A DNA stretch of 32,000 bases from Candidatus Pelagibacter sp. HTCC7211 (GCF_000155895.1 NZ_DS995298.1:1140001-1172000), one strand, 5' to 3'; counted from the first letter of the stretch, positions 6,586-32,000 are shown. Made by a program: numbers and translations. Notes: generated from the sequence alone by a model not told the origin.

Positions 6586-7893
6586 ATGCAAAAATCCTCA
6601 ATCCAATATATCTTAAAATTATCAATTCCTATATTTTTTGCCAACTTAGCAATTCCAATGGTTGGAATTATTGACACAACGTTAATGGGAAATCTAGGAA
6701 GTTTATCTTACCTTTCAGCAACATCTGTTGCAGCCAATTTATTTTCAATGATTTTTTGGAGTTTTGGTTTTTTAAGAATGGGCACAGTTGGAATGGTGTC
6801 TCAAGCTAATGGAAAAAATGACCATTCAGAAATCTTAAATATTATAATTCGAAATCTTTTATTTGTTTTAACTATATCAATAATATTAATTTTAATTCAA
6901 AATTTTATATTAAATTTAAGTCTAAAGATTTTTGATTTATCTGAAGCTACTAAAGATCTTTATAGTCAATATTTTAGAATTAGAGTTTATTCAGCTCCAG
7001 GGGAATTAACACTATACATTATAACTGGATTATTTGTTGGATTACAAAAAACTAAAACTTCTAGTTTTGCTGTTGGTTTTTTTTCTATTTTGAATATTTT
7101 AATAAGTGTAGTTCTTGTCACAAAATTTGATTTGAATATTAAGGGTGTTGCTTATGGAACCTTTTTCTCAGCATTGATTACATCAATAATTTTTTTAATT
7201 TATACATTTTGGTATTTATCAAAATATGCCAAAATTGAAATTAAATTTAATCAAATATTAAATATAAAAAAAATTAAAGATATATTTAATATTAATCTAA
7301 ATATTTTTATTAGAACAATCTTATTAACCTTTTCATTTTTATGGTTCACTTATCTTGGAACACAAATTGGTGAGGATTATGTTGCTGCAAATGCTATATT
7401 AATCAATCTTGTTTTTCTATCTGCTTTTATATTGGATGCTTATGCTTTTTCTACTGAAGGAATAGTTGGTTACTCATTAGGAAAAAAAGATTTAACTCTT
7501 TTTAAAAATATTGTTAAAAATTCATTTATACTAAGTTCGATATCAGGATTAATAATTTCTATAATCTTCTTTTTTACTAACAACTTTGTGATTAATTTTA
7601 TGTCAGATATAGATGAAATCAGAAAGTTAAGTTCATCTTATGTAATTTGGTTAATAATTTTACCTGTAATTTCATCTTTTTGTTATCAATTTGACGGTAT
7701 TTTTATAGGAGCCTCTCAAACAAAAGAATTAAGAAATGCAATGATCTTTTCAGTTTTAGTTTATTTGTTAATTTCAATATTATTAATTAAATTTCTATTA
7801 AATACTGGGATTTGGATTTCTCTTTGTATCTTTATGATTCTAAGAGCTATTTCTCTTTTTTGGTATTTAAATAGAATCTATTTAAGATTTTAA
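6586..7893 (+). CDS. MATE family efflux transporter
   Basis: 435 aa with about 12 TM segments. The N-terminal block PIFFANLAIPMVGIIDTTLMGNLG is typical of MATE (DinF/NorM-like) proteins. Confidence 0.85.
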   Translation: MQKSSIQYILKLSIPIFFANLAIPMVGIIDTTLMGNLGSLSYLSATSVAANLFSMIFWSFGFLRMGTVGMVSQANGKNDHSEILNIIIRNLLFVLTISIILILIQNFILNLSLKIFDLSEATKDLYSQYFRIRVYSAPGELTLYIITGLFVGLQKTKTSSFAVGFFSILNILISVVLVTKFDLNIKGVAYGTFFSALITSIIFLIYTFWYLSKYAKIEIKFNQILNIKKIKDIFNINLNIFIRTILLTFSFLWFTYLGTQIGEDYVAANAILINLVFLSAFILDAYAFSTEGIVGYSLGKKDLTLFKNIVKNSFILSSISGLIISIIFFFTNNFVINFMSDIDEIRKLSSSYVIWLIILPVISSFCYQFDGIFIGASQTKELRNAMIFSVLVYLLISILLIKFLLNTGIWISLCIFMILRAISLFWYLNRIYLRF

Positions 7894-8834: not shown

Positions 8835-9518
8835 ATGATCTTTAAACAGCTTTTTGATACTAAATCATCGACTTATACTTATATTATTGCTTCGGCAAAA
8901 GGTCGCGAGGCTATAATAATTGATCCAGTTATCGAAAATGTTAACGAGTATATTGAGCTTTTAAAAAATCTTGATTTAAAACTTGTAAAAGTAATTGATA
9001 CTCATATTCATGCTGACCATGTAACTGGGGCTTCCAAATTACAAAAAGCAACTAATTGCACAACACTTATGGGTGAGCATACTCCAGCTGATATGGTTGA
9101 TATAAAAGTTAAAGATGGTGAGATAATTGATATTGATAATTTTAAAATAAAATCATTATATACACCAGGACATACCTCAGATAGTTATAGTTTTTTATTG
9201 GATAATTATCTTTTCACTGGAGATACTCTTTTAATTAATGGCACCGGTAGGACAGACTTTCAAAATGGAAGTTCTAAAGATGCTTATAACTCTTTATTTA
9301 ATAATCTTTTAAAATTACCTGAAGAAACATTGGTTTATCCAGGTCATGATTATAATGGTAAGTTTTCAAGTACAATTGGAAATGAAAAAAAATTTAATCC
9401 TAGATTGCAAGTGAAAAGTGTTGATGAATATATAGACATTATGTCTAAGCTAAACTTAGCTAAGCCTAAATTGATTGAAAGTAATGTTAGTAGAAATATT
9501 CAACTTGGTGCTAATTAA
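8835..9518 (+). CDS. Persulfide dioxygenase (ETHE1-type MBL-fold sulfur dioxygenase)
   Basis: Metallo-beta-lactamase motif HIHADH, TPGHTSDS, GDTLL, and the ETHE1-like block GTGRTDFQNGS...YPGHDY. Confidence 0.8.
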   Translation: MIFKQLFDTKSSTYTYIIASAKGREAIIIDPVIENVNEYIELLKNLDLKLVKVIDTHIHADHVTGASKLQKATNCTTLMGEHTPADMVDIKVKDGEIIDIDNFKIKSLYTPGHTSDSYSFLLDNYLFTGDTLLINGTGRTDFQNGSSKDAYNSLFNNLLKLPEETLVYPGHDYNGKFSSTIGNEKKFNPRLQVKSVDEYIDIMSKLNLAKPKLIESNVSRNIQLGAN

Positions 9519-14643: not shown

Positions 14644-15531
14644 TTATTTCCAATCACCTATTTTGCTGAATAGAAAGTTCCTAAAAGCTTGAACTCTTGC
14701 AGTATTTTTAAGCGATTGAGGATATACAAAGTGAGCCTCTGTAATTGGACCTTCTGATTTTGGTAAGACTTTAATTACATTGTTAGAATTTGAGACCAAG
14801 TATTCTGGTAAAGCAGCAAGGCCTACTCCAGACTCTACTGCCAAAAGTAATCCCATTACACTATTTACCTTCATAATTGATTTTCTTTTTTTTCCATCAT
14901 GCATACCAAGCTTCAAAGCCCAATCGGGATTATAAACTGGAGATGGTGCTCCTTTTCCAAAAGAAATAAACTTATGTTTATTTAAGTCACCAATAGTTTT
15001 TGGCATTCCAAATTTTTCTAAATATTTATTTGAACCATAAATAAAATATTTTATATCAACTAATTTCTTTTGAATATAATTGAGTTGTTTTGGTCGTCTC
15101 ATAAAAATACCAATATCAGCTTGTCGCGTACTTAAATCCAATTCTTTGTCATCAAAAACTAATTCAATTTCAATTTCAGGGTTAAGCCTCATAAATTCTT
15201 GAATTCTTGGAGTTAACCAGTGGGTTCCAAAACTTCTAACTGTTGTAATTGTTAATTTTCCAGTTGGTTTATTTTTTTGATCACCTAAAGATGTTTCAAC
15301 TTCTTTAAGTTTACTTATAACCTCATGTGCAGTTTTAAAAACATACTCGCCATTTTCTGTAAGAGTTAATCCTCTTGCATGTCTCTCAAATAATTGAACT
15401 TTTAAATCTTGCTCAAGCGATTGTATTTGTCGACTTATTGCTGATTGGCTAAGATTTAAATTAATCGTGGCATTTGTAAAACTGCCAGCTTCAGCAACTG
15501 CATGAAAAATTTTTAATTTGTCCCAATCCAT
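14644..15531 (-). CDS. LysR-family transcriptional regulator
   Basis: N-terminal wHTH FTNATINLNLSQSAISRQIQSLE and a LysR substrate-binding domain of typical length (295 aa). TAATG overlap with the upstream reductase. Confidence 0.9.
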   Translation of the reverse strand: MDWDKLKIFHAVAEAGSFTNATINLNLSQSAISRQIQSLEQDLKVQLFERHARGLTLTENGEYVFKTAHEVISKLKEVETSLGDQKNKPTGKLTITTVRSFGTHWLTPRIQEFMRLNPEIEIELVFDDKELDLSTRQADIGIFMRRPKQLNYIQKKLVDIKYFIYGSNKYLEKFGMPKTIGDLNKHKFISFGKGAPSPVYNPDWALKLGMHDGKKRKSIMKVNSVMGLLLAVESGVGLAALPEYLVSNSNNVIKVLPKSEGPITEAHFVYPQSLKNTARVQAFRNFLFSKIGDWK

Positions 15532-16532
15532 TATTTATTTAAATCTACTATTACTCTTCCAGAAATTTCTCCTTTTAAAATTTTAGGATAAGTATCTATT
15601 AATTCATCTAAACTAACTGTTAAAATTGATTTTTCTAGTAATTCAAAATCAATTAATTTTGAAGCTTCTGACCATATAAACTCTCTTCTTTTTATACCAC
15701 AATTTGCAGAGTCCATTCCCCAGAGTTTAATTCCTCTTAACATAAAAGGTATCACACTTGTATTTAGTTCGTTATTATTCGCATTACCACATACTGCAAT
15801 TATTCCATTTGGTTTTGTTTGAACAATTGTATTTGCTAAGATTTTTCCACCGACTGTATCAACTACGCCGTCCCATAAACCTTTGTCAATTAACCTTGGG
15901 TCTTTGTCAAATTCAGACCTATTTACAACGTTTTTTGCTCCTAATGATTTTAAGTAATCTGCTTTTGAGTCTTTACCGGTAACTGCAGTTACATTGTATC
16001 CTAATTTAGTCAAAGCCATTACAGCTACACTTCCAACTCCACCGGTTGCACCTGTTACCAAAACATCATTTACTTTTTCACCTAATAAAATGCTTTCTCT
16101 TGCTTGAATTGCGAAAGCACTCATTAAAGAAGTAAACCCAGCTGTTCCTAAGGTCATGGCTTGTCTACTCGTTAATTCTTTAGGTTTTTTAACTAAAAAA
16201 TCTGCGTTTACTTTTGCAATTTGTGAGTATCCTCCGTAAAATACTTCACCCACTCTAAATCCAGTTAAAATTACTTCATCACCCTCTTTAAATTTTGAGT
16301 TTTCACTCTCTATAACTGTACCTGCAAAATCAATACCTGGAATATGAGGAAATTCTTTAACTAATCTTCCACCATTTTTTAAAATCATTCCATCTTTAAA
16401 ATTAAGATCTGAATAATCTACTTTGATAGTTACATCACCATGTTTTAAAAAGCTTTTATCAATGGATTTTACTTCTCTTGTAAAATTTTCGCCTTCTTGA
16501 TTGATGATTAATGCTTTGAATTGATCTGACAC
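15531..16532 (-). CDS. acuI: YhdH/AcuI-family NADPH-dependent acrylyl-CoA reductase (MDR superfamily)
   Basis: Collinear with E. coli YhdH as I recall it: DYSDLNFKDG, FPHIPGIDFAGTV, GTAGFT, VTGATGGVGS, TVGG. It appears to use a GTG start, since there is no in-frame ATG nearby. Confidence 0.75.
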   Translation of the reverse strand: MSDQFKALIINQEGENFTREVKSIDKSFLKHGDVTIKVDYSDLNFKDGMILKNGGRLVKEFPHIPGIDFAGTVIESENSKFKEGDEVILTGFRVGEVFYGGYSQIAKVNADFLVKKPKELTSRQAMTLGTAGFTSLMSAFAIQARESILLGEKVNDVLVTGATGGVGSVAVMALTKLGYNVTAVTGKDSKADYLKSLGAKNVVNRSEFDKDPRLIDKGLWDGVVDTVGGKILANTIVQTKPNGIIAVCGNANNNELNTSVIPFMLRGIKLWGMDSANCGIKRREFIWSEASKLIDFELLEKSILTVSLDELIDTYPKILKGEISGRVIVDLNK

Positions 16533-21417: not shown

Positions 21418-23849
21418 TAAGCTCTCAATAATTTATTTTCAGAATCATAAGGACTCTCGTCTAATACTGTAGCGTCGTACATTTCACCTAAAATATCAAC
21501 TTGTAATTTGTCGCCCACATTAGAACAATCTGGCTTAACCATAGCTAAAGCTATTGACTTATCTAATCTAAAACCAAATTCTCCACCAGTTGCTCTTCCA
21601 ACTACTTTGTTGTCTTTATATATAGGGTTATTTCCTAAAACATCAGCGTCTTTTGTGTTATGGACCTCTAAAGTTACCAGTTTATTATCAAATCCTTTTT
21701 CTCTCCACTTGTTAAGAGCTTCTAAACCTATGAAATTTCCTTTATTAGGGTGAACAAACCTATCTAAACCGGACTCATAAGGTGAATACTCAATAGATAA
21801 TTCTGTACCAACTAGTTTGTATGATTTTTCTAATCTTAGACTATTCATTGCTCTTATGCCGAAAGGTTTAATACCTAAATCATTTCCTTCTGCCATTAGT
21901 TTATCAAATATATGATTTTGATATTCAATTGGATGATGCAACTCCCAGCCTAACTCTCCAACAAAATTTACTCTCATTGCATTTACTGGTGCATAGCCTA
22001 CATCAACTTTTTTTGCAGTTAACCATTTAAAATTTTCATTTGAAAAATCGTCTGTTGAAACTTTTTGCATCAATTCTCTTGCTTTTGGTCCAGCTACCAC
22101 TAGTACACCCGTACTGTTTGTTAAATCTTCAAATATAACTGATCCATCTGTTGGCATCCATTTTTGTATCCAATCATGATCTAGTCTTAAATTGGATCCT
22201 GCAGATACCAAGTAATAACTATTCTCTGCTTCCTTCATAATTGTGAATTCAGAGTGAACACCACCTTTTGTATTAAGAGCATGACATAAATTAATTCTAC
22301 CTATTTTTTTTGGCAGTTTATTTGCAACCAAATAATCTAAAAACTCTTCTGATTTAGGTCCTTTTATTCTACATTTTGCAAATGCGGTCATATCTAATAA
22401 CCCAACATTTTTCTTTACATTCTCACACTCTTTTTTAATTGCATCGAACCATTTAGATCGTCTAAAAGACCAATCATCTTTTTGTTCCATCCCATCAGTT
22501 GCAAAAAAATTGGGCCTCTCCCAACCAAATTTTTGTCCAAATACTGCTCCAAGATTTTTCATCCTCTCATAACATGGCGCTGTTCTCAATGGCCTTGCTG
22601 CTGGTCTCTCTTCGTCAGGATAGTGAGTAATAAATACATGGCTATAAGCCTCCTCATTTTTTGCTTTTAGATAAGATTTTGTAGCATAATTTCCGTAACG
22701 TCTTGGCTCAACTCCTAACATATCAATAGTTGGTTCACCATCTACAATCCACTCAGCTAATTGCCAACCAGCACCTCCTGCTGCTGTTATTCCAAAACTA
22801 TGACCCTCATTAATCCAAAAATTTTTTAATCCCCAAGCTGGTCCAACTATTGGGTTACCATCTGGTGTATAACAGATTGCACCGTTATAAACTTTTTTTA
22901 CTCCTACTTCACCAAATGCAGGAACTCGGTGAATTGCGCCTTCAATATGTGGGGCTAACCTATCTAAATCTTCTTGGAATAATTCGTATTCAGAATTTTT
23001 TGAAGGTCCTTCAACATAACATGCAGGTGCACCATCTTCATATGGACCTAAAATTAATCCACCTGCCTCTTCTCTCATATACCATCTGCTATCACTATCT
23101 CTCAAAACTCCCATCTCAGGTAAACCATCTTTTTTTCTTTTTTGAATTTCAGGATGTGGTTCTGTAACAATGTATTGATGTTCAACAGGTATTACCGGAA
23201 TATCTAAACCAACCATTTCACCAGTTTGTCTTGCAAAATTTCCTGAACAAGAAATAACATGTTCACACTCTATTGATCCTTTATCAGTTTCAACTACCCA
23301 ACCATCTTTAGTTTGTTTCATAGAAAGTACAGTTGTATTTCTATAAATCTCAGCACCCATGTTTCTTGCACCTGTAGCCATTGCTTGTGTTAAGTCAGCT
23401 GGTTGAATATATCCATCCTCTGGGTGTTGGATTGCACCAACTAAATCATCTGTATGACATAGAGGCCAAATTTCTTTAACTTGTTGAGGTGTTAAAAATT
23501 TTACATCAACGCCTATTGTTTGTGCAACACCAGCGTATTGATGGTATTCATCCATTCTATCTTTGGTACTTGCTAATCGAATATTAGATACAACGCTAAA
23601 GCCTACATTTTGACCCGTTTCCTCTTCTAATTTTTTATAAAGATCAACAGCGTATTTATGAAGTTGTCCAACAGAATAACTCATATTAAACAACGGTAGC
23701 AATCCTGCTGCGTGCCATGTCGAACCTGAAGTTAACTCTTTACGTTCTACAAGGACTACATCTGACCATCCTTTTTTTGCTAAATGGTAAAGCGCACTGA
23801 CACCTACTACTCCACCCCCGACTACTACAACTTTAGTTTTTGTCTTCAT
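21417..23849 (-). CDS. Dimethylglycine/sarcosine dehydrogenase family enzyme (FAD oxidoreductase fused to a GcvT-like folate-binding domain)
   Basis: 810 aa. N-terminal [12 protein letters not shown] dinucleotide fold of DAO type. The C-terminal half is aminomethyltransferase-like ([14 protein letters not shown]). I cannot separate DMGDH from SARDH by eye. Confidence 0.85.
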
Positions 23850-23905
23850 CAGCGATTACTACTAAATTTTTTGAAATAACGAAACAAAATTATATATGTG
23901 GATAA

Positions 23906-24382
23906 TTAAATTGAACTGCCAAGCGGGATAGGATTTGACACCATTGTAGTCAACCAACAGTTCATAAGCTCACCATCTTCTGTATATTTTTCTACTTGCC
24001 AATTAAACTTATGGTAAATCTTATTCTTATCTAAAATAATTACTTCAAATTGAGCCCAATTATCACTACTTCCAAGCTTAGTTATTGTGTGACTTAAATG
24101 ATCAATCATCATTTGGTAAGAGTCCCCCTTAAGCATTCTTTTAAAATTAGGTAAAGGTCCTGTCACTTTCTTATTATTTGGGTGAGCGAAATTCCAAGTT
24201 TGCTCAATACCACTATCCTTAAAATTTGAGTCATTTTTTTGAAGCCCTGACAATTGAATCTTAACAACTTCATCAGGTTTGATTTGATTGTTGGGCTTTA
24301 ATAGCTCTGCTTTAGAAATTGATATTGAGATTAATACTAATATTAAAACTTTAAATATTATTTGCAGTGTTTTTAACATCAT
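23906..24382 (-). CDS. Secreted DUF4864-like (NTF2-like) protein
   Basis: Signal peptide ending SISKA/E. The mature part loosely resembles DUF4864 as I recall it. It overlaps the upstream gene by 32 nt, and the true start may be Met2. Confidence 0.4.
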   Translation of the reverse strand: MMLKTLQIIFKVLILVLISISISKAELLKPNNQIKPDEVVKIQLSGLQKNDSNFKDSGIEQTWNFAHPNNKKVTGPLPNFKRMLKGDSYQMMIDHLSHTITKLGSSDNWAQFEVIILDKNKIYHKFNWQVEKYTEDGELMNCWLTTMVSNPIPLGSSI

Positions 24383-24920
24383 CTAGAAACTTTTGTCTTT
24401 TTGCATCACTTACAAATGGTACCGCAAAATATCTTCTATAGACAATGTTATATATGCCACACATATGAAATACTCCTCTTTTTAACCTTCTAATGGGTAG
24501 GTTTAAAAAAAAAGTTGTAATTGCTAAACGTGGAGATCCATAAGTACAAAAAATAATAGCTCTTTTTTTTCTTAAGTTTCCAATTGGGTATCCATAATTT
24601 CCCCATAACTGCTTGAATGTAAAAGCCCAAGGTGGGGCTAAGACTTTATCGATCCAACCTTCAACAATTGCTGGCATTCTAAAATTCCAAATTGGTGCTA
24701 TTAAAACAATCGTATCACATTCCTCAATTCTTTTGCGGTGATTTAAAACTTCTTCACCCGCTTCTTCGCCAGCGAATACAGGATCAAATTTTTCTTTATA
24801 CAAATCTACAGCATCAACTTTGTTGCCATTATTTTCAGCTGTTTTGATAAAAGTATCTCTTATTGCAGCATTAAAAGATTTGTCATTATAATGACCATAA
24901 ACTAAAAAAATCTTTTTCAT
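24351..24920 (-). CDS. Flavodoxin-like fold NAD(P)H dehydrogenase (quinone) family protein
   Basis: 189 aa. The N-terminal KIFLVYGHYNDKSFNAA and the IAPIWNF...P block are typical of Flavodoxin_2 / NQO-like reductases. Confidence 0.65.
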   Translation of the reverse strand: MKKIFLVYGHYNDKSFNAAIRDTFIKTAENNGNKVDAVDLYKEKFDPVFAGEEAGEEVLNHRKRIEECDTIVLIAPIWNFRMPAIVEGWIDKVLAPPWAFTFKQLWGNYGYPIGNLRKKRAIIFCTYGSPRLAITTFFLNLPIRRLKRGVFHMCGIYNIVYRRYFAVPFVSDAKRQKFLDDVKNTANNI

Positions 24921-24957
24921 ATATTTTCACCAACTTTTTAATTTTAAATTTTTTGAA

Positions 24958-26568
24958 TTATTCTGAGGTTTTGTACTTGCTATTATTAATTATAAATACA
25001 AATAAAATTGGTAAAATCAAAGTTAATACTGTCACAACAATTAACAAGATACCTAATTCAGAATAATCTGCTGTGGTTTGAATCTTTCCACTAAATTTGT
25101 CTTTAACTTCTCTTGTAACTACAAATATGTGATTTAAATATTTAGTTAACAAAGCGCTCGCAGAAAGTGCAAGATTTGTGAATGAAGCAAAAACTGCAAA
25201 AAAAGTTGCTTTAAGATGAGATGGAGCATTTTTTGCTATCCAAGCTAACAATGGTATCATGGATACCTGTCCTAAAGGCGACTCTAACGCGGTGTTTATG
25301 ATTGCAATAAATTTTGCATCTACAACACCATTCGTTAAAGATGATGTCCAATTATGAAAACCATAATACATTCCAATACTTGGTAAAAATAAAATAGATC
25401 CTGCAATACTTAAAATAACTATTATTTTAGCAATTGAATTGTTAGCCATAAATGGTCTAAGCAAAACAATACCAGCAAGAGTTAAGATGGATGCTAACAG
25501 AGATAAAACTGAAAAGAATTGTTCATTAAATTTAAGTACATCTATTTCAAACCAAGAAAGTCCTGGGCCAGGACCTGGCATCGCTCTAAATATAAATATA
25601 ATTACAGCAGTTCCAACAATTGTTAACCTCAAGTTTTCAGGTAATTCTTTAATAAGTTTGAACATTAAAAATAAGATTATTATTACAGAACCAATAAAAA
25701 CGATTTCTTGTGCAAATGGAACTTTGAAAGACCCAATTGATAATGTAAAAACAACAAATATTAAACTACCACCTAATATCCACCAATTTATTTTTGTTTT
25801 TTCTGAGCCTCTTTCATCTTTAAAATCTAAACCTTTTAATCTTAAAATTTTAATTTTTTTATTTTTTAAATATTTTGCTAATCCAACACCTAGAATAGAA
25901 ACAAGTGGAATAACTAAAGCATAAATATAAATAGAGCCATATAGTTGAATTTTATTCGCTTGATCTAAATTTTCTACATCTCTGAATAAAATTACATTCA
26001 CTAAAGCAACTAGAACTGTACCACCAATTATTGCAAAACGACCTAATGTCTGCATTGTTGTATGCATTGTTTTGATTTGATCTTTACTGTAGTCATTTCC
26101 TTGATCGTCATTCAAGGGAACTGCTTCAACTGTCATTGCATCAGCAACAACATCTTGAACTACATATCCAACTGGAGCTAAAAGCACACTAAGTACAAAC
26201 CAAGTCTCTACAGAAAATATTTGAACCATGTCTTCTGTATGTATGATTAGACCATACATAATTAATAAACTTATGGCTATTAAGGATGCACCCACATAAA
26301 CCATGTAATTTTTTCTGTCCCAGATAAGATCAACTAAATGACCTAAGGGCATTTTTAAAGCCCATGGAATTCCAGCCCAAAATCCTAAGCCTGCTAAAAA
26401 TGCAGCTGATAAATTTAAATAATCTTTAACAAAAAAAGTTCCTACAATACCGGTAAGTCCGGAAATTCCTGCTGCTAAATAAACCATTAATGGTGGAAGA
26501 TAAGTCCATTTAAACTGACGACCTAAATCTAAAAAAGTATCGTCTAAAAATTTAAATATTTTTTTCAT
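24958..26568 (-). CDS. Polytopic membrane transporter, MFS/BT1 (folate-biopterin transporter)-like
   Basis: 536 aa with 12 or more TM segments. The N-terminal block WALKMPLGHLVDLIWDRKNY resembles the BT1 loop motif. This is a family call from memory only. Confidence 0.45.
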   Translation of the reverse strand: MKKIFKFLDDTFLDLGRQFKWTYLPPLMVYLAAGISGLTGIVGTFFVKDYLNLSAAFLAGLGFWAGIPWALKMPLGHLVDLIWDRKNYMVYVGASLIAISLLIMYGLIIHTEDMVQIFSVETWFVLSVLLAPVGYVVQDVVADAMTVEAVPLNDDQGNDYSKDQIKTMHTTMQTLGRFAIIGGTVLVALVNVILFRDVENLDQANKIQLYGSIYIYALVIPLVSILGVGLAKYLKNKKIKILRLKGLDFKDERGSEKTKINWWILGGSLIFVVFTLSIGSFKVPFAQEIVFIGSVIIILFLMFKLIKELPENLRLTIVGTAVIIFIFRAMPGPGPGLSWFEIDVLKFNEQFFSVLSLLASILTLAGIVLLRPFMANNSIAKIIVILSIAGSILFLPSIGMYYGFHNWTSSLTNGVVDAKFIAIINTALESPLGQVSMIPLLAWIAKNAPSHLKATFFAVFASFTNLALSASALLTKYLNHIFVVTREVKDKFSGKIQTTADYSELGILLIVVTVLTLILPILFVFIINNSKYKTSE

Positions 26569-26596
26569 GATGTTATTGATCTTATTTTACAATAAC

Positions 26597-27046
26597 TTAA
26601 ATTTTAAGATCAAGTCTAGGTTTCCAGAATGGTCTAAATAGCTCAATTTTAGGACATCTGTTCATTACTACTTTAAGTCCAGCATCTTCTGCTAATTTTG
26701 CAGCATCATGATTAATAACACCAATTTGTCCCCATAAAACTTTAGCATTAATATTAATAGCTTCTTCTGCAATACCATAAAGATCTTCAGGTTTTCTAAA
26801 AACTTCTACCATATCTACAGGTCTATCGATTGCTTTTAAATCTGGGTAAACTTTTAAACCTCTTATCTCTGTTATACCAGGGCGCGGATTCACTGGAATC
26901 ATATCATAACCTGTTTCATGCAAAACTCTTAATACACCATAGCTAAATTTTGTTTTATCAGGGCTAGCTCCAACCATTGCAATTGTTTTTACTGAACTAA
27001 GTATATTTCTTAAGTATTCATCTGAGTAAGGCTCTTTATGATTCAT
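26597..27046 (-). CDS. CoA-binding domain protein (YccU-like)
   Basis: 149 aa. Blocks IAMVGASPDKTKFSYGV...GYDMIPVNP...VDMVEVFRKPE...WGQIGV match the CoA_binding_2 pattern. Confidence 0.8.
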   Translation of the reverse strand: MNHKEPYSDEYLRNILSSVKTIAMVGASPDKTKFSYGVLRVLHETGYDMIPVNPRPGITEIRGLKVYPDLKAIDRPVDMVEVFRKPEDLYGIAEEAININAKVLWGQIGVINHDAAKLAEDAGLKVVMNRCPKIELFRPFWKPRLDLKI

Positions 27047-27051
27047 AAGTG

Positions 27052-27414
27052 TTATTTTTTTTTATTTTTTTGAGTAGCAATATCAGCTTTTAGCTCATGC
27101 GGTGCAAGTGGGTCAAGAAAAGGATTTCTATAAAGTTTATCATGACTTTCAACTCCAATTTCAATAGTACAATCTGTTTTTGGTCTTGCAACACATAAGA
27201 TTATATATCCATTATTTATTTGACGATTATTAAGTGCCACTTGTGAACGCTGATCTATTTCACCTTCAATTAATTTAGCTGCGCAAGTAATACATCCTCC
27301 GTATTGACAACCGTAAGGTAAATCCACGCCTTGTTCTCTTAATTCTTGAAGTAAAGACATTCGTCCAGAAACTTTATAAACACTATTCCCTCGATTTGCG
27401 ATTGTGATCTGCAT
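27052..27414 (-). CDS. Plant-type [2Fe-2S] ferredoxin
   Basis: Exact C-x4-C-x2-C-x29-C motif (CQYGGCITC...LC). I moved the start from the track's TTG (27423) to the ATG at 27414, which overlaps the upstream TAA as TAATG. Confidence 0.85.
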   Translation of the reverse strand: MQITIANRGNSVYKVSGRMSLLQELREQGVDLPYGCQYGGCITCAAKLIEGEIDQRSQVALNNRQINNGYIILCVARPKTDCTIEIGVESHDKLYRNPFLDPLAPHELKADIATQKNKKK

Positions 27415-28787
27415 TAAAGCCAAATATCACTTGTACAATCTCCACCTGGGTACCTACTTTCGTGACACCTGCTTGGACCGTTTGGTTCTTTTCCAAAATC
27501 TACTATAAAATCTTTATTTATTTTCATACCACCATTTTCAACATCACAATCTATCATTATCATAGCTCCACCTTGTGTACGTATTTCAGGATAGAATTGA
27601 TTGTCCCAAGTAGAAAACAATGAAGTTGTGACATACATGCGTTTACCATCTAACGATAACTGATACATTTGTGGACCACCAGCAATCTTCACACCATTAA
27701 CAACGGGTGCTTTACCTAAAAGACCACCCATCCAAACTTGTCCTGTTAACTTTGGGTTATGAGGATCTGAAATATCATACTGTCTCATATCTCCATGTAA
27801 CCAATTGTTAAGATAAAGATATTTATCATCCATTGATACAAGGATGGCAGACATAACTCCAGGTACTGGAATTGGCCAATCCGGATGTGGTTCATTTTCT
27901 ACGTCTATGATTTTTTCCCATTCCCATTTTCCTTCTTTAGATTTCCAAAAATGAATTACATTTGCGCTTAGAGCTGCTCCACAAAAACCATGACTACTAT
28001 CAGGGTTGTGCATAAATTTAACTTCCAATGGTATTAAACCGTCTTCTCCTAGATACATTGTTTCAACTGGTTCTTTTTTTTTAAAATCCCAGATATGTAA
28101 TCTACGTCCATATTTTAAATGACCAACTTCTTCTAAATCAAAACCTGGCATAAATGTATTGGGTGCTGCCCACTCTGAACTTACCATGACGTTGTGTCGT
28201 GGCTGATACCAAAAATCATAACTAAATGGGATATCCCCCATAGAATTTTCCCATCTTCCTACAATTTCAAAATCTTTGTTTAAATGTAAATATCCACCTG
28301 GTGCTTCACCTCTTGCATTGCCTAAAAAAGAAATAATTATTTCAGAGCCTAAACAGTGGACTGTATGGGGGCCTGATAAATTAGTTTTAGATTTAATTTC
28401 TGAACCTTCAATAATTTTATGAATTCTAGGTGCAAATGGGTCTGTTGCAGTATCAATTACATGAATATTATTAGATCTTACACCTGGTACTAAAAGGTAT
28501 TTTCTACTCATACCTTCATCACCATGACATGAAGAACAAGCATTCCATCCCATATGATGCAATTCATCTCCTATACCTGGCATTTCAAGTCGGTGAATAA
28601 CTTTTGAATATGTGGGACTGTCTGGATCTACATCAATAGTTGCTAGATAATCTGGTTTCTGAATTCCAGTACCTGTGTAAATTGCTATTGTATATAAAAG
28701 TTTTTCACTTGGTGCTTTTATTGCATCTGCTGGACTAGCATATCCAGGACCACAACATGTTTTTTTTTCATTTATAATATTAGTCAT
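27414..28787 (-). CDS. mtoX: SBP56-family selenium-binding protein homologue / putative methanethiol oxidase, cytoplasmic
   Basis: 457 aa. N-terminal CCGPGYASPADAIK, GWNACSSCHGD and HNVMVSSEWAAPN closely parallel SELENBP1/MtoX blocks. No signal peptide is present. Confidence 0.9.
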   Translation of the reverse strand: MTNIINEKKTCCGPGYASPADAIKAPSEKLLYTIAIYTGTGIQKPDYLATIDVDPDSPTYSKVIHRLEMPGIGDELHHMGWNACSSCHGDEGMSRKYLLVPGVRSNNIHVIDTATDPFAPRIHKIIEGSEIKSKTNLSGPHTVHCLGSEIIISFLGNARGEAPGGYLHLNKDFEIVGRWENSMGDIPFSYDFWYQPRHNVMVSSEWAAPNTFMPGFDLEEVGHLKYGRRLHIWDFKKKEPVETMYLGEDGLIPLEVKFMHNPDSSHGFCGAALSANVIHFWKSKEGKWEWEKIIDVENEPHPDWPIPVPGVMSAILVSMDDKYLYLNNWLHGDMRQYDISDPHNPKLTGQVWMGGLLGKAPVVNGVKIAGGPQMYQLSLDGKRMYVTTSLFSTWDNQFYPEIRTQGGAMIMIDCDVENGGMKINKDFIVDFGKEPNGPSRCHESRYPGGDCTSDIWL

Positions 28788-28789
28788 AA

Positions 28790-28987
28790 TTATTTATTCT
28801 TTTTTATTTGTTCCTCACAAAACTTTTTTGCTTCTTTTAAATCTGTAATTTTTGATTCAGATAATTTTTGACTACCTGCAAGACATGCGTCTACAGCTCT
28901 TTTAAAATTATGATCATTAAAACTTAAAATAAAAAACATGCCTGCAATTATAAAAATTATAATAAAGAAATTTTTTTTATTTAACAC
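28790..28987 (-). CDS. Small single-pass membrane protein, unknown function
   Basis: 65 codons from a GTG that overlaps the upstream TAG. One TM segment (FFIIIFIIAGMFFILSF) and a charged C-terminal tail with 2 Cys. Its TAA stop is separated from the SBP56 ATG by 2 nt. The start codon is uncertain. Confidence 0.4.
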   Translation of the reverse strand: MLNKKNFFIIIFIIAGMFFILSFNDHNFKRAVDACLAGSQKLSESKITDLKEAKKFCEEQIKKNK

Positions 28988-29766
28988 TATTTATTTTTCC
29001 ACTTTGGTTTTCTTTTTTCCAAGAAAGCTGAAATTCCTTCTTTTGCATCCATTGCCATCATATTAATTGTCATCATTTTGCTTGTATATGCGTAAGCTTT
29101 TGCTAAAGGCATCTCTAATTGTTTATAAAAAGCTTGTTTTCCAATTTTAATCGTTAGATTTGATTTTGACGCAATAAGTTTTGCAACTTTTAAAACTTCA
29201 GAATTTAATTTTGATGCAGCAAAACAATCATTAATAAGACTTATTTCTTTTGCATAACTTGCTTTAATAGGCTCACCCGTTAGCAACATTTTCATCATAG
29301 GTTTTCTATTAATTTTTCTACTTACAGCAACCATAGGTGTGCTGCAAAATAAACCAATATTTACTCCAGGGGTAGCAAATAAAGCTTCTTTAGTACTATA
29401 AGCTAGATCGCAACTCGCAACTAACTGACATCCTGCAGCAAAAGCTGCTCCATGCACTTTAGCAATAACGGGTTTCCTTCCTTCAACAATTTGAAGCATT
29501 ACTTTTGAGCAAAGATTAAATAGTTTTTGATATTTTTCTTTTTTTTTTAATCCTCTTACTTCTTTTAAATTGTGACCTGCGCTAAAACCTTTGCCGGCAC
29601 CTTCTAAAATTATAACTTTAACATTTTTATCAGCATCTAATTTTTTTAAACTCTTTAATAAATCTGAAAGATTTTTAAATGATAATGAATTATAGGTTTG
29701 AGGCTCATCAATAATTATTGATGATATATCTTTGTCGATTTTTTTTATTTTAATATTGCTTGTCAT
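28987..29766 (-). CDS. Crotonase-superfamily protein, ECHDC3-like (both canonical hydratase glutamates absent)
   Basis: 259 aa. Oxyanion-hole block GAGKGFSAGHNLKE. Where canonical hydratases have GGGxEL and PE, this protein has AAGCQL and TPGVNIG. The pattern AAGCQLVASCD...ATPGVNIGLFCSTP...AFLEKRKPKW matches my recollection of ECHDC3. Confidence 0.85.
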   Translation of the reverse strand: MTSNIKIKKIDKDISSIIIDEPQTYNSLSFKNLSDLLKSLKKLDADKNVKVIILEGAGKGFSAGHNLKEVRGLKKKEKYQKLFNLCSKVMLQIVEGRKPVIAKVHGAAFAAGCQLVASCDLAYSTKEALFATPGVNIGLFCSTPMVAVSRKINRKPMMKMLLTGEPIKASYAKEISLINDCFAASKLNSEVLKVAKLIASKSNLTIKIGKQAFYKQLEMPLAKAYAYTSKMMTINMMAMDAKEGISAFLEKRKPKWKNK

Positions 29767-30618
29767 TTAATCAGTTAACCCATCGGATCTTGCTTGATTT
29801 CTTTCTATATGAATTGGTAAAACTTTGCCATATATTGCTTTAGAATGCTCAGGTGTATTAACTCTCCATGGATCCAATACATAAGCTGGTATACACATAT
29901 ATCTTGATTTTTTACCTTCAACTTTGGTTACTCTATGAAGTGTAAATCTTCCTTTAAATATTTGTAAATCACCAGGTTCTAACTTTAATTGTTTAACTTT
30001 CGTCCTATCTCCATTTAAAACTTTTTTAACCTCTTCAAAATTTTCATTCCCTGGTTCTCTTATGTTTGCACAATATTCAAAAATCCCACCATTTTCAGGT
30101 TTCTGGATCATTAAACTTAAAGTAAATTCGCAGCTATCAAAATGCCATGGAAGAATTCCTTCAGGTTTCATTACATTATATGCATGGCAAGCCAATGGGT
30201 CGGCCCATCTGTATATTGGAGAAACACCTAGGCAAGCAGAAACAAATTTCAAAAGCTCTTCAGTTTCATAAAGGTATTTCATTTCTGAATTTTTTTGAAA
30301 ACAGTCAGAATTTAGATATCCATTATATCTTTCCATAAAATTTCTCTTAGGATGTTCTTTAGGTAAAGATGGATCATCTTTAGCATATAAGTATGCATTG
30401 ATTTTTTCCTTAGACATATAAACTTCATCAAGCTGCTTTTCTAATTCTAAATTCATTGTCTCTAAAGATTTAGGTAAAATAAAATTTGGTATGGTAGAAC
30501 AGCTATCTTGGTCTAGTTCTTTTTTACACTTCTCAATTAATCTTTTAATAATTGGAGAATTTAAATCATGAATAGGATATTTTTCTAAATCAACAATAGT
30601 TTTAAGTCTATCGTTCAT
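29767..30618 (-). CDS. Fe(II)/2-oxoglutarate-dependent oxygenase, unknown substrate
   Basis: 283 aa. HxD (WHFD), distal His (TLHRV) and an Arg 11 residues later (SRY) fit the 2OG oxygenase facial triad and 2OG-binding Arg. The stop abuts the crotonase ATG with 0 nt between them. Confidence 0.6.
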   Translation of the reverse strand: MNDRLKTIVDLEKYPIHDLNSPIIKRLIEKCKKELDQDSCSTIPNFILPKSLETMNLELEKQLDEVYMSKEKINAYLYAKDDPSLPKEHPKRNFMERYNGYLNSDCFQKNSEMKYLYETEELLKFVSACLGVSPIYRWADPLACHAYNVMKPEGILPWHFDSCEFTLSLMIQKPENGGIFEYCANIREPGNENFEEVKKVLNGDRTKVKQLKLEPGDLQIFKGRFTLHRVTKVEGKKSRYMCIPAYVLDPWRVNTPEHSKAIYGKVLPIHIERNQARSDGLTD

Positions 30619-30622
30619 TGCT

Positions 30623-30997
30623 TTATTTTAGTTTGCCTTCTTCTCTCATTTTTGCTCTAATTTTTGTAGCTGAGATTTCTTGAATTTCTTTTGATAGTTC
30701 AATTTCTTCAATTTTATAACCAACTCCTCTACCGTAACAAATATTAGTAATATTCGGAACCATCATAATTTTAAATTGTCCTTCAAATTCTGGATTTAAC
30801 CTATCTTCAATATTTTTTTTTACAGTTTCAAAATCAAATGGATTATCATCCACTCCTTGAACGTCTCTAATTTGAATACACACTTGACCAGTTTTTTTTA
30901 TAATTTCTTTAAACAATGTGTAATGGCCATCATGAAATGGTTGCCACCTTCCTAACATTTGAGCTGTTGGTTTTTTATTATCCCATTGGTATGACAT
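30623..30997 (-). CDS. Minimal HxGH nucleotidyltransferase (NMNAT/cytidylyltransferase-like)
   Basis: 124 aa. GRWQPFHDGH compares with GRFQPFHxGH of archaeal/NadM NMN adenylyltransferases. C-terminal ISATKIR is the ISxTxxR motif. SD AAGGGG lies upstream. Confidence 0.65.
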   Translation of the reverse strand: MSYQWDNKKPTAQMLGRWQPFHDGHYTLFKEIIKKTGQVCIQIRDVQGVDDNPFDFETVKKNIEDRLNPEFEGQFKIMMVPNITNICYGRGVGYKIEEIELSKEIQEISATKIRAKMREEGKLK

Positions 30998-31008
30998 GAT
31001 TTTACCCC

Positions 31009-31422
31009 TTATTTTAAATTAATATCTTCAAATATTTTTGGTGCCCAATTTTTAGCATCTTGTGTAGTAACATGAAAGTCAAACTTATCTGGTTTGATAA
31101 ACATTTTGTTAGTATCATCAAATCTTCCTTCTTTAATAGTATCTACCCATATAACATAATCAGCAGGAAACAAACTTCTCGCTTCTGGTGTTGGACATAT
31201 AAAATCTGCTACAACATCAAATCCTTGTTCTTTTAATTTTAGAGCAAAATCTGACATTCTTTTAGCTTGCCGCTTTCTTCCTTCTTCAGAAAAATCCCAA
31301 TCATTTGCCTCTTTTCTAACTTCATCAGCATTCAATCTCTTAGCATTTAACATTGGTGCTAATTCTCCTGCCAAAGTTGTTTTTCCTGAACCAGGCAAAC
31401 CCATTATTAAAATTATTTTCAT
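31009..31422 (-). CDS. Short P-loop kinase, adenylylsulfate (APS) kinase-like
   Basis: 137 aa. Walker A GLPGSGKTT. The blocks LNADEVR, DFSEEGRKRQAKRM, DFICPTPEAR and VIWVDT parallel CysC blocks LDGDxxR, GFSxxDRxENIRR, FISPxxxxR and EVFVDT. Confidence 0.6.
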   Translation of the reverse strand: MKIILIMGLPGSGKTTLAGELAPMLNAKRLNADEVRKEANDWDFSEEGRKRQAKRMSDFALKLKEQGFDVVADFICPTPEARSLFPADYVIWVDTIKEGRFDDTNKMFIKPDKFDFHVTTQDAKNWAPKIFEDINLK

Positions 31423-32000
31423 TAAATATCTTCTAACGGATGATGGGACATTAGTTCAAGTCCATTTTGACCCACTAAATATTGTTGCTCAAGTTTTACG
31501 CCCTCTTTACCACCAACTTTTCCAATATAGCTTTCAACAGTAATAGTCATGTTTTTTTGAAATATACCGCCTTTGTCTCCACCATCTGTTGGATATCTTA
31601 TTGATGGCCACTCATCGCACAAACCTATTCCGTGAACCATCACAGAATATCTATTGCCATAATATTCTTTAGGAAGTTTCCAAGATTTTTCTATAAACTC
31701 TTTAAAAGTCGTACCATCTTTTATTAAACTTGAATTATGGTTAATTTGATTAACTGCCATTGAATAAAGATTTTTTTGATTATCATTAAAAATATTTCCG
31801 CATACAAATGTTCTCGATATATCAGCACAATATCCATAAGGTCCTACCATATCAGTATCAAATGAAACAATTTCTCCCTGTTGTATTATCTTATTACTAC
31901 TTTCTTGCATCCAAGGATTTGTTCTCTCCCCTGATGATAAAATTCTACACTCAATCCATTCACCGCCATTTTCTATATTTGTTTTGTGAAGTATCGACCA
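31422..32000 (-). CDS. M24-family metallohydrolase (creatinase/Xaa-Pro peptidase/DoeA/DddP-like), partial
   Basis: The frame stays open upstream of the track's Met to the window edge, so the N-terminus is missing. Pita-bread blocks FDTD, GYCADISRTF, HGIGL, VESY and LEQQ are present. The substrate is not assignable. Confidence 0.7.
   Translation of the reverse strand, partial: WSILHKTNIENGGEWIECRILSSGERTNPWMQESSNKIIQQGEIVSFDTDMVGPYGYCADISRTFVCGNIFNDNQKNLYSMAVNQINHNSSLIKDGTTFKEFIEKSWKLPKEYYGNRYSVMVHGIGLCDEWPSIRYPTDGGDKGGIFQKNMTITVESYIGKVGGKEGVKLEQQYLVGQNGLELMSHHPLEDI

Follow-up and report, generated by a model that had tools for sequence, protein, structure and literature searches.

Methanethiol is the main sulfur product of dimethylsulfoniopropionate (DMSP) demethylation, and its oxidation sets how much marine sulfur is retained and how much is lost as gas. 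Omics surveys routinely tally SBP56 genes from SAR11, SAR116 and roseobacters as MtoX or methanethiol oxidase. The present analysis concerns one such gene from Candidatus Pelagibacter sp. HTCC7211, located in a stretch of 32,000 nt (NZ_DS995298.1:1140001-1172000) that is referred to here, at its full length, as the window. The question raised by this locus is why an oxidase gene should be so closely joined to a gene for a ferredoxin. On the minus strand, the SBP56/SELENBP1-type methanethiol oxidase gene (27414-28787, 457 aa, Pfam SBP56) is followed by a plant-type [2Fe-2S] ferredoxin gene (27052-27414, 120 aa, Pfam Fer2) and by a coenzyme A (CoA)-binding gene (26597-27046, 149 aa, Pfam CoA_binding_2, YccU/PH1109 type), with a 5-nt gap between the ferredoxin stop and the CoA-binding start. 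The SBP56 TAA (27416-27414) and the ferredoxin ATG (27414-27412) have one base in common, and the resulting TAATG (27412-27416, minus strand), already pointed out in the original prediction from the sequence alone, can be read directly and suggests translational coupling.

The SBP56 gene alone belongs to a known class; what looks undescribed is a conserved SBP56-ferredoxin(-CoA-binding) module. In the searchable literature, no paper was found that pairs SBP56, or a selenium-binding protein, with a ferredoxin or a CoA-binding protein as a conserved module, in line with what the original prediction had supposed. Only one item bears on it, an expression table with the three genes side by side (PMC10203303): in NAC11-7 roseobacters they have consecutive IMG identifiers and show a joint expression shift between two species in situ. 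Both biochemical studies of the cytoplasmic class used the catalytic protein alone, whereas most bacterial lineages sampled here encode a dedicated ferredoxin and usually the CoA-binding protein too. The finding splits two enzyme systems that are lumped in surveys, with the tail-bearing ferredoxin as a sharp marker of the cytoplasmic one.

Conservation of the SBP56-ferredoxin pair

According to the conservation data, the arrangement is far beyond chance. A genome scan seeded with SBP56 returned at least 591 relatives, of which the best 80, all with at least 83% identity, were kept. The SBP56, ferredoxin and CoA-binding genes are directly consecutive, in that order and on one strand, in 79 of these 80 loci, and the CoA-binding gene is present in all of them; the single exception is a Paracoccaceae locus from which the ferredoxin has been cleanly lost. 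The loci come from Pelagibacteraceae, SAR116, Rhodobacteraceae/Paracoccaceae, Hyphomicrobiales, Hellea, Geminicoccaceae, Spiribacter, Granulosicoccaceae and Acidimicrobiia and have differing flanks, and many Rhodobacteraceae loci with this type of SBP56 carry the trio. With regard to more distant relatives, the range of 50-80% identity was sampled thinly, in 15 lineages: at 68-80% identity a ferredoxin is adjacent in eight of ten lineages, and the CoA-binding gene as well in four of the ten, and at 51-61% a ferredoxin is adjacent in two of five (Haloferax mediterranei and Haladaptatus), the SBP56 loci of Natrinema, Natronorubrum and Rubrobacter having none. At or below 41% SBP56 identity, an adjacent ferredoxin was found in none of four loci.

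The genes of the module are co-inherited and co-diverging. SBP56 identity correlates with that of the ferredoxin (Spearman 0.86, n=88) and with that of the CoA-binding protein (Spearman 0.83, n=84), and in Archaea the linkage persists where the identity of SBP56 has fallen to 51-53% and that of the ferredoxin to 36-38%. Most related loci have a stop/start overlap of 1 or 4 nt at the SBP56-ferredoxin junction. The order is SBP56-CoA-binding-ferredoxin in two Chloroflexota lineages, and the CoA-binding gene is absent or replaced in others. The original prediction had made its case depend on the adjacency being conserved beyond close relatives, and such conservation is what was observed: across phyla, with different flanks and even in another gene order.

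The reverse search started from the ferredoxin. A metagenome scan seeded by an alignment of SBP56-adjacent ferredoxins, with a divergent lead sequence, returned 80 loci. An SBP56 gene lies immediately upstream, on the same strand, in all 63 loci with at least 600 nt of upstream sequence, and the 3'-terminal part of an SBP56 gene opens 13 further contigs; of the remaining four loci, two offer 0 nt of upstream sequence, and the roughly 100 nt in each of the other two gave no detectable match. No recovered locus with readable upstream sequence had a ferredoxin of this subfamily without SBP56. The SBP56-ferredoxin-CoA-binding architecture accounts for 33 of the 80 loci, plus 8 shortened upstream, SBP56-CoA-binding-ferredoxin for 3, and SBP56-ferredoxin-PpoB2 (Pfam PF09948, Copper chaperone) for 6 + 1; the third gene is unrecognised in 19 loci and in 6 more with less than 600 nt downstream. 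From these architectures, the ferredoxin is the dedicated partner of SBP56, and the third gene of the module varies by lineage.

Could the linkage nevertheless reflect genome packing, or a compact block that is transferred horizontally with no functional coupling between its genes? SBP56 is 83-90% identical across phyla, which is implausibly high, and one copy resides on a conjugative plasmid, so that block transfer clearly occurs; part of the set with at least 83% identity has probably spread in this manner, and its loci are therefore not fully independent. Furthermore, SAR11 genomes are densely packed. Since many close loci may have a recent common horizontal origin, the strongest evidence comes from the divergent lineages and from the reverse search. 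The linkage holds down to the archaeal identities given above, it outlasts a change of gene order and a swap of the third gene, none of the 80 ferredoxin-seeded loci with readable upstream sequence is without SBP56, and the trio or pair is present in large, unstreamlined genomes too. Genome packing is rejected on these data, and a lack of functional coupling appears extremely improbable.

In the Paracoccaceae metagenome-assembled genome (MAG) that lacks the ferredoxin, just 40 nt lie between SBP56 and the CoA-binding gene (L089:6365-6406), which has the look of a clean deletion and amounts to a natural knockout.

The proteins of the module

The SBP56 open reading frame (ORF) contains all the hallmark blocks that had been listed for it, namely CCGPGYASP (residues 11-19), GWNACSSCHGD (80-90) and HNVMVSSEWAAPN (198-210). 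The protein matches Pfam PF05694 over profile positions 2-453 of 453 (E 5.7e-204, 678.5 bits, cut-off 34) and PDB 2ECE with E 1.7e-124, and is 52% identical to vertebrate methanethiol oxidase. Cluster 1 of the Rhodobacteraceae methanethiol oxidases is defined by the motifs GWNACS, HTVHC and GGDCT (PMC10936201), and the window protein has them as GWNACSS (C84), PHTVHC (C145) and GGDCTS (C451). The proposed copper ligands H77/H78, H141/H144, D191 and E255, as well as Cys451, are invariant in the SBP56 alignment; the corresponding ligand and C-terminal cysteine residues of RdMTO/SELENBP1 are given in PMC13603461. On these motifs, the protein is classed as a SELENBP1-like cluster 1 methanethiol oxidase, predicted to be cytoplasmic and of the copper type. 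It shares with RdMTO, RlMTO and human SELENBP1 the Pfam family, the three motifs, the proposed copper ligands, the C-terminal cysteine and the lack of an export signal; these enzymes have, however, been studied as single proteins, and neither paper names a ferredoxin or CoA-binding partner (PMC10936201, PMC13603461). A search with 115 RdMTO residues rebuilt from the supplement of PMC10936201 returned short fragment proteins only, none of them from Roseobacter denitrificans.

The N-terminus, MTNIINEKKTCCGPGY, has no hydrophobic signal stretch, the maximum 12-residue hydropathy being 1.13 as compared with 2.21 in an MtoX-like protein with an obvious signal peptide, and the ORF cannot be extended upstream because in-frame stops lie just upstream of the ATG, the nearest three codons before it. 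The absence of an export signal thus holds, but its presentation as an unusual trait does not: cytoplasmic SELENBP1-type methanethiol oxidases have already been characterised (RdMTO/RlMTO; PMC10936201, PMC13603461), another is predicted in Methylacidiphilum (PMC9003020), and the lack of a signal peptide is an ordinary feature of this SBP56 clade. The contrast that had been drawn with bacterial MtoX is borne out. MtoX of Hyphomicrobium sp. VS is likewise a copper methanethiol oxidase of the SBP56 superfamily with a conserved accessory gene directly downstream, but it is periplasmic, has a signal peptide and about 26-27% identity, and its accessories are SCO1 and MauG (PMC5739008). With 158.4 bits, where the NCBIfam equivalog NF052453 requires 650, the window protein is ruled out as MtoX, and family searches found neither SCO1/SenC nor MauG among any of the window ORFs. 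An MtoX-like gene of Skermanella, 27% identical to the window SBP56, encodes a clear signal peptide, and a SCO gene comes next.

The ferredoxin has a perfect C-x4-C-x2-C-x29-C motif (Cys36, Cys41, Cys44 and Cys74), as had been noted, and matches Pfam PF00111 Fer2 (E 8e-15, 55 bits, cut-off 21); among PDB entries, ferredoxins of cyanobacteria and plants match it best (E 1.7e-20). The cluster-binding segment from Cys36 to Cys74 (27193-27309, minus strand) contains the subfamily motif YGCxYGGCITCAAKL...LCVA, and the four cluster cysteines are invariant in alignments of SBP56-adjacent ferredoxins. The protein falls below the TIGR02008 fdx_plant cut-off (74.9 bits against 81.15) as a close outlier with its own loop and tail. 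This C-terminal tail, GVESHDKLYRNPFLDPLAPHELKADIA (residues 87-113; 27076-27156, minus strand), lies beyond the part alignable to solved plant-type ferredoxins, the PDB alignments stopping near residue 89. It is common to Alpha-/Gammaproteobacteria, Actinobacteria and Chloroflexota (GVESHDxLYxNPF; LYxNPF), with a reduced form in haloarchaea. The SBP56-adjacent ferredoxins make up a subfamily with its own cluster loop (YGCxYGGCITCAAKL) and tail, and the tail is a candidate docking peptide. An exhaustive search found relatives at E < 1e-30 in 22 clusters only (50% identity). An assignment to YfaE was ruled out (36.4 bits against a cut-off of 75, NF007985). AlphaFold2, run on the ferredoxin sequence by itself, gave an unusable model with a mean predicted local distance difference test score (pLDDT) of 36.

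The CoA-binding protein, placed as predicted downstream of the ferredoxin, matches Pfam PF13380 over profile positions 1-114 of 116 (E 8e-37, 126.7 bits, cut-off 22.8) and the PDB structures 2duw (E 3e-32), PH1109 (E 6e-24) and TT1466. It is expected to bind coenzyme A, given that these structures were named CoA-binding by their depositors. A second, divergent CoA_binding_2 paralogue (42% identity) directly follows the first in a SAR11 subclade (L021-L032; ~7185-7580 in locus coordinates).

Role of the ferredoxin

The preferred reading, to which an even chance may be given, is that of a cytoplasmic methanethiol-oxidation module in which SBP56 is catalytic, the ferredoxin is the electron donor and the CoA-binding protein is a lineage-variable component. 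The sequences and loci show what the genes are, which families they fall in, their two-way linkage, their co-divergence and their metabolic setting; physical interaction, the direction of electron flow and the role of CoA are what we infer. SBP56 would be a copper-dependent catalytic subunit that converts methanethiol, supplied by the breakdown of DMSP/methylmercaptopropionyl-CoA (MMPA-CoA) or of methionine, to formaldehyde (HCHO) and reduced or sulfane sulfur. The ferredoxin would be its dedicated one-electron partner, co-made with the enzyme via the overlapping stop and start and probably docking on SBP56 by the conserved C-terminal tail. It would give electrons by which the copper/cysteine site is kept in, or restored to, a reduced O2-reactive state, and it may also curb the release of H2O2 in a cell poorly defended against peroxide.

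Such a role has an analogue in YfaE, a [2Fe-2S] ferredoxin that is encoded with class Ia ribonucleotide reductase and serves in cofactor maintenance. Both are small plant-type ferredoxins encoded beside an O2-using metalloenzyme that formally needs no external electrons, whereas YfaE belongs to another family, has a partner enzyme with Fe rather than Cu and is devoid of a C-terminal tail. The PaaE, MmoC, BenC and GbcB reductases, to whose Fer2 domains the window ferredoxin has weak matches, offer a conceptual parallel in ferredoxin-fed, O2-dependent C-H oxidation. Here, in contrast, there is no attached or adjacent reductase, and the partner is a copper beta-propeller rather than a di-iron or Rieske oxygenase.

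Together with the horizontal spread of the close loci, several points weigh against a standing electron donor. Copper-loaded RdMTO and human SELENBP1 are oxidases on their own, giving H2S, H2O2 and HCHO (PMC13603461), so that the ferredoxin is dispensable for the basic chemistry. There is no adjacent ferredoxin in eukaryotic orthologues or in the prokaryotic loci L089, L091, L096, L099, L100 and L107, and no ferredoxin reductase came up as a recurrent neighbour in the neighbourhood cluster analysis. Natural SBP56-ferredoxin fusions were not seen among the best 150 representatives of the ferredoxin relatives, nor among the SBP56 and other matches listed in the homologue searches.

The opposite direction of electron flow would turn SBP56 into a methanethiol dehydrogenase, with the ferredoxin in place of O2 as the acceptor of two electrons, energy conserved and H2O2 avoided. 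An oxidase formally needs no donor, the loop YGCxYGGCITCAAK differs from the canonical CRAGSCSSCAGK in a way that might shift the potential, and demethylation genes of the electron-harvesting kind (DMGDH, ETF and ETF-QO) abound in the window. However, the (HCHO + H2S)/CH3SH couple is estimated, from standard tabulated free energies of formation, to lie at about 0 V at pH 7 and is too positive to reduce a plant-type ferredoxin, since transfer to one at -0.25 to -0.43 V would be strongly uphill. Moreover, the characterised orthologues use O2, and no downstream acceptor or quinone-linked partner recurs nearby. A donor is favoured over an acceptor on account of this couple and of the missing acceptor chain; on thermodynamic grounds that are our own estimate, the acceptor role is judged very unlikely.

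A different possibility is that the ferredoxin serves maturation only, being needed once for the insertion of copper or for a redox cofactor or cross-link in SBP56, with no part in or between turnovers, a role parallel to that of SCO1/MauG for periplasmic MtoX. Immediately downstream of SBP56, each clade of the family has a small accessory gene of its own, which is SCO in the MtoX-like one (PMC5739008), and RdMTO made in E. coli is nearly copper-free. A known parallel is the tyrosinase PpoB1 with its copper chaperone PpoB2, in which a copper oxidase is encoded alongside a membrane protein for copper delivery, and PpoB2 homologues follow SBP56-ferredoxin in 7 loci; the window differs in that its third gene encodes a CoA-binding protein, the ferredoxin being present in both variants. 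That loci with PpoB2 also keep the ferredoxin argues against its being a stand-in for copper delivery. Cytoplasmic copper is, besides, generally already Cu(I), and the tight translational coupling and docking-like tail suggest a standing partner. A role restricted to maturation is considered unlikely.

RdMTO and RlMTO oxidise methanethiol in vitro, and the two biochemical studies of the cytoplasmic class disagree on the products, H2S + H2O2 or S0 + H2O (PMC10936201, PMC13603461). Recombinant RdMTO contained about 0.01 Cu per protein without added copper (PMC13603461), and 0.3 mg/ml enzyme with 44-111 µM methanethiol consumed corresponds, by calculation, to about 7-18 turnovers in 30 min. The low copper content and the few turnovers may be a hint of missing partners. 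A more specific form of the donor reading, which is unlikely, is that the enzyme is in vivo not an oxidase but a ferredoxin-dependent, H2O2-free methanethiol monooxygenase with the ferredoxin as a stoichiometric co-substrate (CH3SH + O2 + 2 reduced Fd + 2 H+ -> HCHO + H2S (or enzyme persulfide) + H2O, Fd being the ferredoxin), from which the CoA-binding protein would hand sulfane sulfur, as CoA persulfide, to rhodanese and persulfide dioxygenase. If this were true, both in-vitro product reports would be artefacts of a catalytic subunit assayed without its partners.

Neighbouring genes and other SBP56 clades

The recurrent neighbours of the module were counted in a cluster analysis of 65 non-SAR11 loci. 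An IclR regulator is found in 26 of them (upstream and divergent in 19), a DmdA-like aminomethyltransferase in 16 (373-377 bits, cut-off 410), a rhodanese in 13 (mostly right after the CoA-binding gene), an ECHDC3-like enoyl-CoA hydratase in 8 (plus 23 of 24 SAR11 loci), an acyl-CoA synthetase in 7 and a Blh-type persulfide dioxygenase in 5. Overall, an enoyl-CoA hydratase gene is adjacent in 36 of the 98 CoA-binding-type loci. On the conjugative plasmid of Phaeobacter inhibens, SBP56, ferredoxin, CoA-binding, rhodanese, dioxygenase, hydratase, acyl-CoA synthetase and DmdA-like genes form one same-strand run, with a divergent IclR gene upstream. A marine SBP56-ferredoxin-PpoB2 lineage has divergent genes for S-(hydroxymethyl)glutathione dehydrogenase (FrmA) and S-formylglutathione hydrolase (FghA), both above their equivalog cut-offs, accompanied by an MBL-fold gene and an SQR-like gene. 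The hydratase, DmdA-like, rhodanese and acyl-CoA synthetase genes occur only beside the CoA-binding variant, bar one hydratase at a PpoB2-type locus.

These neighbours fit both the origin expected for methanethiol (DMSP/MMPA-CoA) and the products of its oxidation (formaldehyde and sulfide or sulfane sulfur), and lend support to the proposed link with DMSP-derived methanethiol. Of the further window genes cited for this link, the AcuI/YhdH-type reductase (15531-16532) and an ETHE1-type persulfide dioxygenase (8835-9518; PDB 4ysb E 4e-67, human ETHE1 E 1e-52) are present, whereas the demethylase (1380-2522) is DmdA-like only, its 389.6 bits falling short of the 410 that NCBIfam sets for DMSP demethylase. 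The DmdA-like neighbours in general (373-390 bits, just below 410) are likewise not called true DmdA. An identification of the neighbouring hydratase as DmdD is unsupported, as it is ECHDC3/PRK08139-like and DmdD is not among the best 60 of 124 PDB matches; the acyl-CoA synthetase of the Phaeobacter plasmid is ruled out as a DmdB equivalog (288 bits against 822).

The exclusive association of the CoA-binding gene with genes for CoA thioesters, rhodanese and persulfide dioxygenase suggests two possible roles for its product within the module, which are the weakest part of the proposed mechanism. Most plausibly, CoA would be the thiol that takes up sulfane sulfur ahead of rhodanese and persulfide dioxygenase; alternatively, the protein might link the module to the CoA-thioester step that frees methanethiol, for which the enoyl-CoA hydratase is a candidate. 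The same association bears on whether methanethiol is the physiological substrate at all, or a side activity of an enzyme for another thiol, a selenium compound or a CoA-linked sulfur compound. Not only are CoA thioesters suggested by the CoA-binding protein, the hydratase and the acyl-CoA synthetase, but RdMTO takes other short alkyl thiols (PMC13603461), and some non-marine-looking lineages (Marmoricola; 4.9-7.8 Mb genomes) have no DMSP genes beside the trio. On the other hand, neighbours match the methanethiol products, with FrmA/FghA for formaldehyde and rhodanese, persulfide dioxygenase and the SQR-like gene for sulfur, as well as its source, with DmdA-like genes in 17 loci, and the active site has the residues of proven methanethiol oxidases. 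A different physiological substrate seems quite unlikely, and methanethiol is retained in the preferred reading.

With regard to the window itself, the trio is part of a same-strand run with minimal gaps, consisting of a HalD-like oxygenase, an enoyl-CoA hydratase, a 65-aa ORF, SBP56, the ferredoxin, the CoA-binding gene, a BT1-family transporter and a flavodoxin-fold NAD(P)H oxidoreductase. The nearest genomes are Pelagibacteraceae single-cell assemblies, with 94-100% identity over these genes. Promoter-like sites in 23700-31100 showed no excess over shuffled sequence, and the six terminator-like sites in the same interval (expected 2.7 ± 1.8) include none within the run's short intergenic gaps; the operon structure is therefore deduced only from the tiny gaps and overlaps. 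The ECHDC3-like hydratase (28987-29766, minus strand; Pfam ECH_1 E 2e-51, PDB 3myb/2vx2, NCBIfam PRK08139 347 bits, cut-off 313) is probably in one transcription unit with SBP56. The small ORF that lies between them (28790-28987, minus strand; 65 aa, GTG start, no Pfam match) has an N-terminal hydrophobic helix and is kept at 56-100% identity across the SAR11 loci L011-L022; it is probably a real small membrane protein.

The HalD-like Fe/2-oxoglutarate oxygenase gene, two genes upstream of SBP56 (29767-30618, minus strand), matches PF23169 (E 3.5e-11) and has no NCBIfam match; it is again near SBP56 in 7 SAR11 loci and, at 41% identity, in a gammaproteobacterial MAG (copies include L009:3319-4185 and L010:1172-2038). 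Further upstream on the minus strand are two small genes with weak family matches, one cytidylyltransferase-like (30623-30997, 124 aa) and one adenosine 5'-phosphosulfate (APS)-kinase/P-loop-like (31009-31422, 137 aa), which are kept in 21-23 SAR11 loci. Upstream of these again is a DddP-like M24-family gene (31422-32000, minus strand) that is incomplete at the window end, a full copy being present in L011:1131-2366. It scores 340 bits (E 1.7e-101) over nearly the full NCBIfam profile of the DMSP lyase DddP, below the 600-bit cut-off, and is possibly a DMSP lyase relative, five genes upstream of the methanethiol oxidase. On the other side of the trio lie the flavodoxin-fold oxidoreductase and the BT1-family transporter (24351-24920 and 24958-26568, minus strand); the oxidoreductase follows the trio in SAR11 only and stands immediately 3' of the CoA-binding gene in SAR11 loci without the transporter. 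The oxidoreductase might be a local source of reducing power in SAR11.

Outside SAR11, an FMN (flavin mononucleotide)-dependent 2-hydroxyacid dehydrogenase (LldD-like) and a thiamine pyrophosphate (TPP) enzyme adjoin SBP56 in an Anaerolineae MAG (L105:7030-9371) and in L107:706-3437. The best matches of the TPP enzyme include 2-hydroxyacyl-CoA lyase and oxalyl-CoA decarboxylase, all of them below cut-off, and the two neighbours may hint at a CoA-linked C1/C2 handling of formaldehyde.

Each of the other SBP56 clades has its own accessory gene, be it SCO, a ~215-aa His-rich membrane protein, a haloarchaeal membrane protein or PpoB2. In the clade at ~40% identity (Azospirillum, Deinococcus and Phaeobacter piscinae plasmids), SBP56 is always followed by the ~215-aa His-rich integral membrane protein (L103:5368-6036, L102:5372-6013, L098:6393-7037), which has no Pfam family and 36-49% mutual identity; seemingly uncharacterised, it is possibly a metal-delivery partner. 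Haloarchaeal SBP56 is followed, directly or past the ferredoxin, by a homologous membrane protein of ~245 aa (33% identity; L099:5526-6254, L101:5795-6559), and the Haloferax SBP56 (L097:4935-6332) has the His-rich stretch HHEHEHHEHHVH in place of the N-terminal CC motif.

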